A DNA stretch of 64,000 bases from Escherichia coli (GTDB lineage: Bacteria; Pseudomonadota; Gammaproteobacteria; Enterobacterales; Enterobacteriaceae): the NCBI RefSeq assembly GCF_003334385.1, contig NZ_QOWN01000006.1; one strand, 5' to 3'. This document shows positions 43,213 to 43,607 of this stretch, in pieces (the stretch's first letter is position 1; each line of letters begins with the position of its first letter). The notes under the pieces were generated by a model, which was not told the origin of the DNA, made no database searches, and saw nothing but the letters and a program-made list of their open reading frames with translations. The position numbers were made by a program, and so were the translations under genes.

Positions 43213-43319
43213 CAATATTTTCCTCCCGCGCTAAAGATCACATAATCTTAACAAGAATGTTAAAAAACGCTGGACTCAGACAGTAGAGTGTGTGTTATGG
43301 TTGACTATAAAGTCAGCGA

Positions 43320-43579
43320 AGGAAATGCTTCTGGCTTTTAACAGATAAAAAGAGACCGAACACGATTCCTGTATTCGGTCCAGGGAAATGGCTCTTGGGA
43401 GAGAGCCGTGCGCTAAAAGTTGGCATTAATGCAGGCTTAGTTGCCTTGCCCTTTAAGAATAGATGACGACGCCAGGTTTTCCAGTTTGCGTGCAAAATGG
43501 TCAATAAAAAGCGTGGTGGTCATCAGCTGAAATGTTAAAAACCGCCCGTTCTGGTGAAAGAACTGAGGCGGTTTTTTTA
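43320..43579 (+). ncRNA. ryeA: RyeA (SraC) small RNA, antisense to and encompassing SdsR; 5' end approximate
   Basis: Plus-strand terminator (CCGCC..GGCGG + T7) at 43542-43578; known antisense partner of SdsR in pphA-yebY intergenic region. Confidence 0.45.
43347..43449 (-). ncRNA. sdsR: SdsR (RyeB) small RNA
   Basis: Minus strand reads GCAAGGCAACUAAGCCUGCAUUAAUGCCAAC...GACCGAAUACAGGAAUCGUGUUCGGUCUCUUUUU, matching recalled SdsR with terminator; sigma-S-like -10 (CTATTCT) just upstream. Confidence 0.75.
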
Positions 43580-43607
43580 TTGGAAATCAAAAGGCTATTT
43601 TAGGTAA

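Follow-up and report, generated by a model that had tools for sequence, protein, structure and literature searches.

The gap between pphA and yebY in this stretch of Escherichia coli DNA is best explained as the site of two mutually antisense small RNA (sRNA) genes, sdsR (ryeB) and ryeA (sraC), regulating as published, and we assign this reading a probability of about 0.97. The sdsR/ryeA locus was first described in 2001 and has been dissected since, so the presence of the pair at this gap is already known. The genes at the locus, with RefSeq coordinates mapped to the window (i.e. the whole 64-kb stretch analysed), are:

42556–43212, minus strand: pphA (b1838), the flank downstream of sdsR
43309–43580, plus strand: ryeA (sraC, b4432), a 272-nt primary transcript
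43347–43450, minus strand: sdsR (ryeB, b4433), about 103 nt
43608–43949, minus strand: yebY (b1839), the conserved flank upstream of sdsR

Identity, boundaries and conservation of the sdsR/ryeA pair

The 5 kb between positions 40743 and 45743 of the window are identical, base for base, to positions 1920500–1925500 of E. coli MG1655 (NC_000913.3). As a whole, the window represents a very close relative of MG1655 and not MG1655 itself (4 SNPs in 25243–29743 and a 6-nt offset further upstream). The 392-bp gap was found in 5,426 of 5,426 complete E. coli genomes at an identity of at least 95%.

Two full-length Rfam matches at gathering thresholds were identified in the gap. These are RF00111 (SdsR/RyeB), covering 43446–43347 of the minus strand (model positions 1–100 of 100; 114.4 bits, gathering score 38), and RF00101 (SraC/RyeA), covering 43343–43487 of the plus strand (model positions 1–145 of 145; 175.1 bits, gathering score 37). 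The scan had been suggested as a check in the earlier note, which had recognized an SdsR/RyeA pair between pphA and yebY; RefSeq (b4432 and b4433) and Rfam both agree with this assignment, and no evidence contrary to the identity of the two genes was found. A permissive Rfam rescan of 43000–43800 (E ≤ 1) gave nothing else credible in the gap, and a match to rliE (43525–43630; 25.7 bits against a threshold of 90) was discarded as a chance hit. The curated MG1655 annotation has no CDS between the start of pphA (43212) and the stop codon of yebY (from 43608), in keeping with the observation in the earlier note that no ORF explains this region. Among the matches listed, about 115 RefSeq E. coli genomes annotated with PGAP have nothing annotated under the locus, where both Rfam models exceed their thresholds three- to fivefold; this is why an ORF track shows only a gap and a 63-aa ORF there.

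The conservation of the locus was surveyed with a DNA pattern for the SdsR core, which retrieved 120 loci (one genome per species), all from Enterobacterales except for two evident contaminants. In 111 of 121 loci yebY was the gene immediately upstream of sdsR. On the other side, pphA was placed less than 800 nt from sdsR in only 9 loci, and the distance ranged from 0.2 to 4.6 kb. The gene order rsmF-yebV-yebW-pphA was retained in most of the Enterobacteriaceae loci with enough flanking sequence, so it is the DNA separating pphA from the sdsR 3' end that varies. This retained order, together with the varying distance, led to rejection of the idea that pphA itself is part of an integrase relic (the possible remnant is described below). 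The survey reproduces the results of Froehlich et al. 2012 (PMC3333887), namely conservation of SdsR but variability of SraC, with a constant flank on the yebY side and a changeable one on the other.

The structures and promoter sequences of both RNAs were also established in the present analysis, along with their identity, boundaries and conservation. The elements of sdsR are:

43347–43381, minus strand: intrinsic terminator found in a terminator scan (hairpin 43381–43353 with the loop AGGAAUC; tail CUUUUU, 43352–43347)
43408–43430, minus strand: conserved segment, unpaired or weakly paired in the fold
43455–43463, minus strand: sigma-S-type -10 region TCTATTCTT, with 8 of 9 positions of KCTAYRCTT
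43478–43483, minus strand: putative -35-like hexamer TGGAAA, with a 16-bp spacer

The minus-strand gene is the same as SdsR/RyeB in its sequence, its three hairpins, its sigma-S promoter and its place downstream of yebY. The sole nuance is the 5' end, which was mapped by primer extension and 5' RACE at 43449, 1 nt inside the RefSeq end at 43450 (Choi 2019, PMC6610125). The published 3' ends (+100 to +102) correspond to 43350–43348, and the 5' ends processed by RNase E (+31 to +34) lie near 43419–43416 (PMC6610125, Table 1). The limits of SdsR read earlier from the letters alone (minus strand, 43449–43347, terminator included) thus begin at the published start, and the elements coincide within 1 nt.

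Upstream of SdsR, the -10 hexamer TATTCT is located at 43461–43456, and C(-13) at 43462. This box was mutated to CTCGAG by Choi 2019 (as identified from the mutagenic primer PM_SdsRF), which abolished SdsR (PMC6610125), and both C(-13) and the sigma-S dependence of the promoter have been described (PMC3333887). In 104 of 108 orthologous loci CTAYNCTT, with its C(-13), is found at a fixed distance from the gene. The sigma-S -10 consensus does not occur above chance in the 64-kb window (58 matches vs 72 expected), and therefore the presence of the motif was not used as evidence; the weight of this box comes from position, experiment and conservation. On these grounds the sigma-S-like -10 noticed earlier at 43463–43455 stands. 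The -35-like hexamer was read from the sequence using the 16-bp spacer given in PMC3333887 and is a putative assignment. The TTTTCCAG block is conserved in Enterobacteriaceae.

SdsR is predicted to fold with -34.8 kcal/mol (z = -4.4), which is more stable than shuffled controls, and its minimum free energy structure consists of three stem-loops, of which the last is the Rho-independent terminator. In 82 distinct sequences the terminator stem was 100% paired, and three of its pairs had changed on both sides. Stem 1 appeared only 69% paired, as MAFFT misaligned indels in it (covariation is therefore not measurable there), and stem 2 was invariant by construction, being fixed by the search pattern. 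The segment 43408–43430 was nearly invariant in these sequences, with 43402–43415 fixed by the search pattern. Two seed domains and Hfq sites have been described in SdsR (PMC5137417).

The elements of ryeA are:

43271–43276, plus strand: putative, weak -35-like hexamer TGGACT read from the sequence, with a 19-bp spacer
43293–43301, plus strand: extended -10 TGtTATGGT (hexamer TATGGT, 43296–43301)
43537–43578, both strands: probable bidirectional intrinsic terminator (A5 tract; GC hairpin, 43542–43571; T7, 43572–43578)

The plus-strand gene is the same as SraC/RyeA and covers sdsR completely, so that sdsR lies wholly inside ryeA, with convergent promoters and total overlap. The Rfam model of RyeA (145 nt) is confined to the stretch lying antisense to sdsR and the sdsR promoter, and the real transcript extends 34 nt further at the 5' side and 93 nt further, to the terminator, at the 3' side. 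Three adjacent start sites were mapped by RACE and primer extension at 43307–43309, and 3' RACE ends (+261 to +270) correspond to 43569–43578 (PMC6610125). The -10 hexamer TATGGT was read off the primer RyeA-p3 (TGTGTGT-CTCGAG-TGACTATAAAG), and its mutation abolishes RyeA (PMC6610125); as it is preceded by TG, it is an extended -10. Of what the earlier note had said of RyeA, the overlapping antisense RNA on the plus strand holds, and the 5' end and promoter that it had left unresolved are now placed by the published mapping. RyeA folds more stably than shuffled controls.

The RyeA terminator folds on the plus strand with -20.6 kcal/mol (z = -4.6; none of 200 shuffles as stable), and the fold of the minus strand is equally good. 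The strong plus-strand terminator read earlier at 43542–43578 agrees with this fold, with the RefSeq end (43580) and with the RACE ends. As the hairpin is situated 30 nt past the yebY stop codon, between an A-tract and a T-tract, it probably terminates the yobA-yebZ-yebY operon too; a single bidirectional terminator would then serve both RyeA and this operon. The layout of A-tract, hairpin and T-tract was recognized in 73 of 115 loci, and those lacking it were nearly all from non-Enterobacteriaceae genera, including Yersinia, Serratia, Rahnella and Dickeya. Because of a bulge in its stem, the RyeA terminator escaped a generic terminator scan of the window, and a generic scan for sigma-70 promoters detected neither that of sdsR nor that of ryeA. 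The promoter and RyeA-terminator assignments thus draw on experiments and on conservation and do not depend on how strong the motifs are.

The locus also contains open frames, which raise the question of a coding function. The longest is:

43313–43504, minus strand: 63-aa ORF with a TTG start, spurious

A genuine small-protein gene filling the gap has a negligible probability. The frame is uninterrupted in E. coli and its central 27 codons (MPTFSARLSPKSHFPGPNTGIVFGLFL) appear conserved in translation, but this core is exactly the stretch shared with the conserved SdsR RNA, within which substitutions preserve RNA pairing. In 108 orthologous loci the median open span of the frame is 45 codons, with at least 60 codons in only 28 of them, and stop codons interrupt it upstream of the core in Citrobacter, Enterobacter, Kosakonia, Serratia, Yersinia and others. 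It is because of these stops in most relatives that the ORF is considered spurious, as already supposed in the earlier note; in addition, it has no Shine-Dalgarno sequence, no NCBIfam match and no counterpart among the MG1655 CDSs. That RyeA is a dual-function RNA also encoding a micropeptide is scarcely more credible. Three ATG ORFs of 13–14 codons are present on its strand (43388–43429, 43463–43507 and 43497–43538), but none of them has a clear Shine-Dalgarno sequence or is annotated in MG1655. The partial conservation of the ORF starting at 43463 is explained by its overlap with the sdsR promoter, and its codons 2 and 3 change non-synonymously between genera. A literature search on this point found no report of a RyeA-encoded peptide in titles or abstracts.

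Antagonism between SdsR and RyeA

Sigma-factor use, dependence on Hfq and RNases, targets, toxin/antitoxin behaviour and read-through into pphA are known from published experiments. The sdsR promoter depends on sigma-S, and SdsR represses ompD (PMC3333887). The RNA binds Hfq and is processed by RNase E to SdsR+31 (PMC5137417). The targets reported for it comprise ompD, tolC, mutS, yhcB, crp and others (PMC6610125, PMC5137417), of which mutS did not act as a target in the RNA-seq of Choi 2019 (PMC6610125). In vitro, ryeA is transcribed by the sigma-70 holoenzyme only, and SdsR by the sigma-S holoenzyme (PMC6610125). The same study, using promoter mutants, reported that RyeA and SdsR degrade each other and that their transcription interferes, and that pphA is transcribed mainly by read-through from the sdsR promoter. 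The ryeA-ryeB duplex was identified as the most abundant dsRNA cut by RNase III in stationary phase (PMC7373196).

Taken onto the present sequence, these results suggest the following scheme. SdsR would be transcribed from 43449 to about 43348 (minus strand) from a sigma-S promoter in stationary phase, would form three stem-loops, be bound by Hfq and be cut by RNase E near +31, and would repress mRNAs in trans via its conserved single-stranded stretch. Part of the transcription of sdsR would run past the SdsR terminator and give rise to pphA mRNA. RyeA, spanning all of sdsR, would be transcribed from 43309 to about 43578 (plus strand) in growing cells by sigma-70 RNA polymerase from its extended -10. 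It may oppose SdsR by two routes: since the overlap is total, the two RNAs are perfectly complementary and their duplex would be destroyed by RNase III, and the converging polymerases would interfere with each other, which may also lower the expression of pphA.

The locus is the one for which a toxin/antitoxin pair with both parts made of RNA was proposed (Choi et al. 2018, 2019; PMC6610125). According to this proposal, overproduced SdsR kills via repression of yhcB, and its neutralisation by RyeA relies on pairing and on decay through RNase III (PMC6610125). The label is debated, and both toxicity and rescue are known from the literature. Deletion of the sraC promoter raised SdsR only about 1.5-fold, and SraC was judged not essential for SdsR control (Froehlich 2012, PMC3333887), so that the term 'antitoxin' rests largely on overexpression work. 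A similar arrangement of a trans-acting sRNA and a cis-encoded antisense antagonist, both cut by RNase III, is formed by CJnc190 and CJnc180 of Campylobacter jejuni (PMC8687705). These are unrelated in sequence and organism, and RNase III matures the active sRNA there, whereas it destroys both partners at sdsR/ryeA.

A phage attachment site in the 3' end of sdsR

The SdsR terminator is also an attachment site for phages:

43346–43377, no strand assigned: attB core TAAAAAGAGACCGAACACGATTCCTGTATTCG, the 3' end of sdsR, unoccupied in the window

A 120-nt query across the 3' end of sdsR was split in 235 of the 5,426 complete E. coli genomes. Two of the genomes with split junctions were opened, and both carry a prophage at the site. 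In NZ_CP148453.1 a prophage of about 41 kb lies between sdsR and pphA, flanked by imperfect 32-bp direct repeats that correspond to positions 43346–43377 of the window. In NZ_CP101292.1 a module of integrase, excisionase, recET and ralR genes adjoins sdsR, and the same int/xis/recET module is found at the junction in both genomes. The integrase beside the junction matches phrog_7244 and phrog_1.

The reconstructed attP is contiguous in the phage PP818812.1, right after int (100% coverage, 92.6% identity). The attL and attR sequences are reciprocal hybrids of attB and attP, with the crossover at 43362–43372, an interval that includes the 7-nt loop of the SdsR terminator, the stem arms of which form the flanking inverted repeat. 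Hence, the SdsR terminator (43346–43377) is a phage attB. After integration sdsR is rebuilt from phage DNA, while pphA, together with the ryeA promoter and the 38 nt at the 5' end of RyeA, comes to lie 41 kb away.

Use of the site is not limited to E. coli. Integrase homologues, some full length and some reduced to stumps, are present beside the 3' end of sdsR in 25 of 120 other-species loci, from Citrobacter to Yersinia and Serratia. The principle has been published: attachment of the Salmonella phage PhiW104 in ryeB was reported by Balbontin et al. 2008, and, as that work is related in PMC7380047 and PMC3603311, the last ~23–32 bp of sdsR act as attB there too, with the 5' part of ryeA replaced. 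That case concerns Salmonella, whereas the site considered here is from E. coli and unoccupied in the window. The 64-kb window contains the att core just once, so no ancient attL marks the far edge of an old element.

Integration sites in tRNA and tmRNA genes offer a parallel, as there also a structured RNA gene provides the att core with its 3' end and is rebuilt from phage DNA, the hairpin arms constitute the inverted repeat and the crossover falls in or next to the loop. At sdsR, by contrast, the target is the terminator of an Hfq-binding sRNA and not a tRNA arm, and the promoter of the antisense partner is swapped too.

A possible integrase origin of the ryeA promoter

Between pphA and the start of RyeA, a further feature was recognized:

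43235–43303, plus strand: what appears to be a fossil tyrosine-integrase gene end (the last ~22 codons), now carrying the ryeA promoter

This segment aligns with the last ~22 integrase codons (GHKNLTMTKKYLDARGAEYVMV*). Integrases of this kind are encoded at the same position and in the same orientation in Enterobacter, Leclercia and an Escherichia species. The intact integrases of one subgroup end with ...AAAAAATACCTGGACGCACGCGGTGCAGAGTATGTTATGGTTTAG (...KKYLDARGAEYVMV*), about 80 nt from the att core, and the K-12 sequence at the place corresponding to this end is TTAAAAAACGCTGGACTCAGACAGTAGAGTGTGTGTTATGGTTGAC. A profile was built from the last 40 codons of four intact int genes, with the att arm and core excluded, and its best match in the 64-kb window (both strands) was at 43235–43303 (E = 0.0086). 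With a broader profile, made from 13 diverse integrase 3' ends, the locus was not matched. As only the closest integrase subgroup matches, the case for a fossil rests on a modest E-value combined with the position and with intermediate forms. The latter comprise truncated integrases and integrase-free fossils from Citrobacter, Pseudescherichia and Atlantibacter, which stand in register with K-12 in a multiple alignment (A2).

In this register the -10 box TATGGT corresponds to the V-M-V codons of the integrase, and the CTGGAC block, which is invariant in the alignment, to the L-D codons just past the catalytic tyrosine. Some 35 nt made up of ATTTCGKG repeats, probably arm-type sites for the integrase, are missing from K-12, and the length of this missing stretch agrees with the ~35-nt shorter E. 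coli RyeA described in PMC3333887. On these observations, 43235–43303 is likely homologous to the 3' end of an integrase gene.

In Salmonella, E. albertii and Klebsiella the promoter is of a second type, TGnGATATAA, and this box also occurs in the att arm of the E. coli prophage, about 40 nt after the int stop codon. The att arm of a second integrase family thus carries an outward-facing box of its own, resembling an extended -10 (TGTGATATAA) and unlike TATGGT. We tentatively propose that the promoter and 5' leader of ryeA are no ancestral part of the chromosome but an exapted stump of a phage tyrosine integrase at the sdsR att site, in which lineages without the integrase would have retained the -10 and CTGGAC blocks while the remainder decayed; that this is both true and previously unpublished has, in our estimate, the odds somewhat against it.

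Such an origin bears on whether RyeA is a dedicated regulator at all. RyeA might be a by-product of transcription from a chance or relic promoter, ending at what is really the yebY terminator, and several observations are in accordance with this: the ryeA promoter region differs among species and the length of RyeA varies (PMC3333887, and also the loci studied here), the promoter seems to be derived from an integrase gene end, the RyeA terminator sits where that of yebY would, and SdsR responded only slightly to the loss of the sraC promoter, as mentioned above. Against it, in five integrase-free lineages the -35-like and extended -10 blocks share 0.87–0.89 pairwise identity vs 0.34–0.40 for the spacer and flanks, a promoter-shaped footprint which suggests selection on the promoter, although anchoring of the alignment may exaggerate the contrast. 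Moreover, mutation of the ryeA -10 led to an earlier appearance of SdsR and to higher pphA expression (PMC6610125), and reciprocal expression is seen in Klebsiella as well. We therefore consider the by-product explanation unlikely and retain RyeA as an antagonist of SdsR.

The locus itself is a re-identified textbook sRNA pair, and the practical value of recognizing it is in annotation. The accompanying results concern the evolution of an sRNA circuit, as a core stress sRNA serves phages as a landing pad and, in lysogens, the RyeA antagonist and the downstream pphA are both cut off from sdsR. The RyeA promoter seems to be recycled integrase DNA and, if this is confirmed, it would be a clear case of a regulatory RNA born from the remnant of a mobile element. 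Each event of integration or decay would then rewire how a core sigma-S sRNA is controlled by its antisense partner, and phages would have donated the RyeA 'antitoxin' and would still be exchanging it.

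Annotation and ends of the sdsR/ryeA locus

The antisense sRNA genes sdsR and ryeA lie between pphA and yebY, in a stretch (43216-43607) where no annotated feature was found in any of the approximately 115 PGAP-annotated RefSeq E. coli genomes among the matches listed. Both Rfam models scored far above threshold in this stretch, and ryeA and sdsR are named only in the curated record of E. coli K-12 MG1655. The window is close to but not the same as the MG1655 sequence: within 25243-29743 the two differ by four SNPs (at 25481, 26123, 29194 and 29366), a 6-nt offset occurs upstream of ~25243, and the sdsR/ryeA region is identical in both. 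The features of the locus and the short ATG-initiated ORFs (13-14 codons) present on the RyeA strand are:

42556-43212, minus strand, pphA
43309-43580, plus strand, ryeA
43347-43450, minus strand, sdsR
43388-43429, plus strand, ATG ORF
43463-43507, plus strand, ATG ORF
43497-43538, plus strand, ATG ORF
43608-43949, minus strand, yebY

A clear ribosome-binding site was absent for all three ORFs. An A-tract and a T-tract are placed symmetrically in the RyeA terminator (43537-43578), which is located 30 nt past the yebY stop codon and probably also ends the yobA-yebZ-yebY operon, encoded on the opposite strand.

Other RNA elements in the window

Three further Rfam matches, as well as a palindromic stretch, were identified in the window:

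8266-8351, minus strand, sroD, full-length match (115 bits)
25498-25579, both strands, palindromic stretch with weak matches to miRNA families
25704-25800, plus strand, Mn2+ (yybP-ykoY) riboswitch upstream of mntP (41.6 bits versus a gathering score of 45)
27394-27854, minus strand, cspA-thermoregulator match (135.5 bits)

The sroD match lies across the fadD 3' end and the spacer between rnd and fadD, a stretch for which the MG1655 feature table lists CDSs alone. The riboswitch, scoring slightly below the gathering score, is missed at default thresholds. The palindromic stretch, between yobD and mntP, probably represents a repeat or hairpin element. The cspA identity of the last match was rejected, as the region corresponds to the yobF-cspC transcript and cspC is a paralogue of cspA.

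Disruptions and rearrangements in other genomes

In E. coli FDAARGOS_944 (NZ_CP065613.1; around 6225-6980 of the retrieved sequence L123), an IS1A element lies within the 5' stem-loop of sdsR, at the equivalent of window position ~43440, and should inactivate SdsR and split RyeA. In Yersinia artesiana (L043), Y. proxima (L066) and Y. pekkanenii (L098), unlike at every other locus, the yebY homologue is found on the other flank of sdsR and in reverse orientation; this suggests that the region has been inverted or rearranged locally. Two contigs labelled Chryseobacterium (L084) and Flavobacterium (L085) carry the conserved enterobacterial SdsR core, the former together with yebY, and this suggests contamination.

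Phage integration at the sdsR 3' end and the ryeA promoter

The terminator, i.e. the 3' end of sdsR (43346-43377), is a phage attB site. A search of 5,426 complete genomes of E. coli found this junction interrupted in 235, and in two example genomes it is occupied by a prophage (~41 kb) with a tyrosine integrase. Integrase homologues also adjoin the sdsR 3' end in 25 of the 120 loci of other enterobacterial species.

Phage record PP818812.1 (L127) is labelled as an Actinobacillus phage, yet its attP matches enterobacterial sdsR, and its host label is therefore doubtful.

The last ~22 codons of the integrase genes that occupy this position in other genomes align with the ryeA promoter region (43235-43303); in lineages that have lost the integrase the ryeA promoter boxes are kept and the neighbouring sequence has decayed. 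In Escherichia albertii (L004), pphA was not found within 1.2 kb upstream of the sdsR 3' end; its place is taken by 78 nt, without an integrase, that share 93.6% identity with the att arm of the E. coli prophage. This stretch looks like a recent remnant that would supply a TGTGATATAA-type RyeA promoter.
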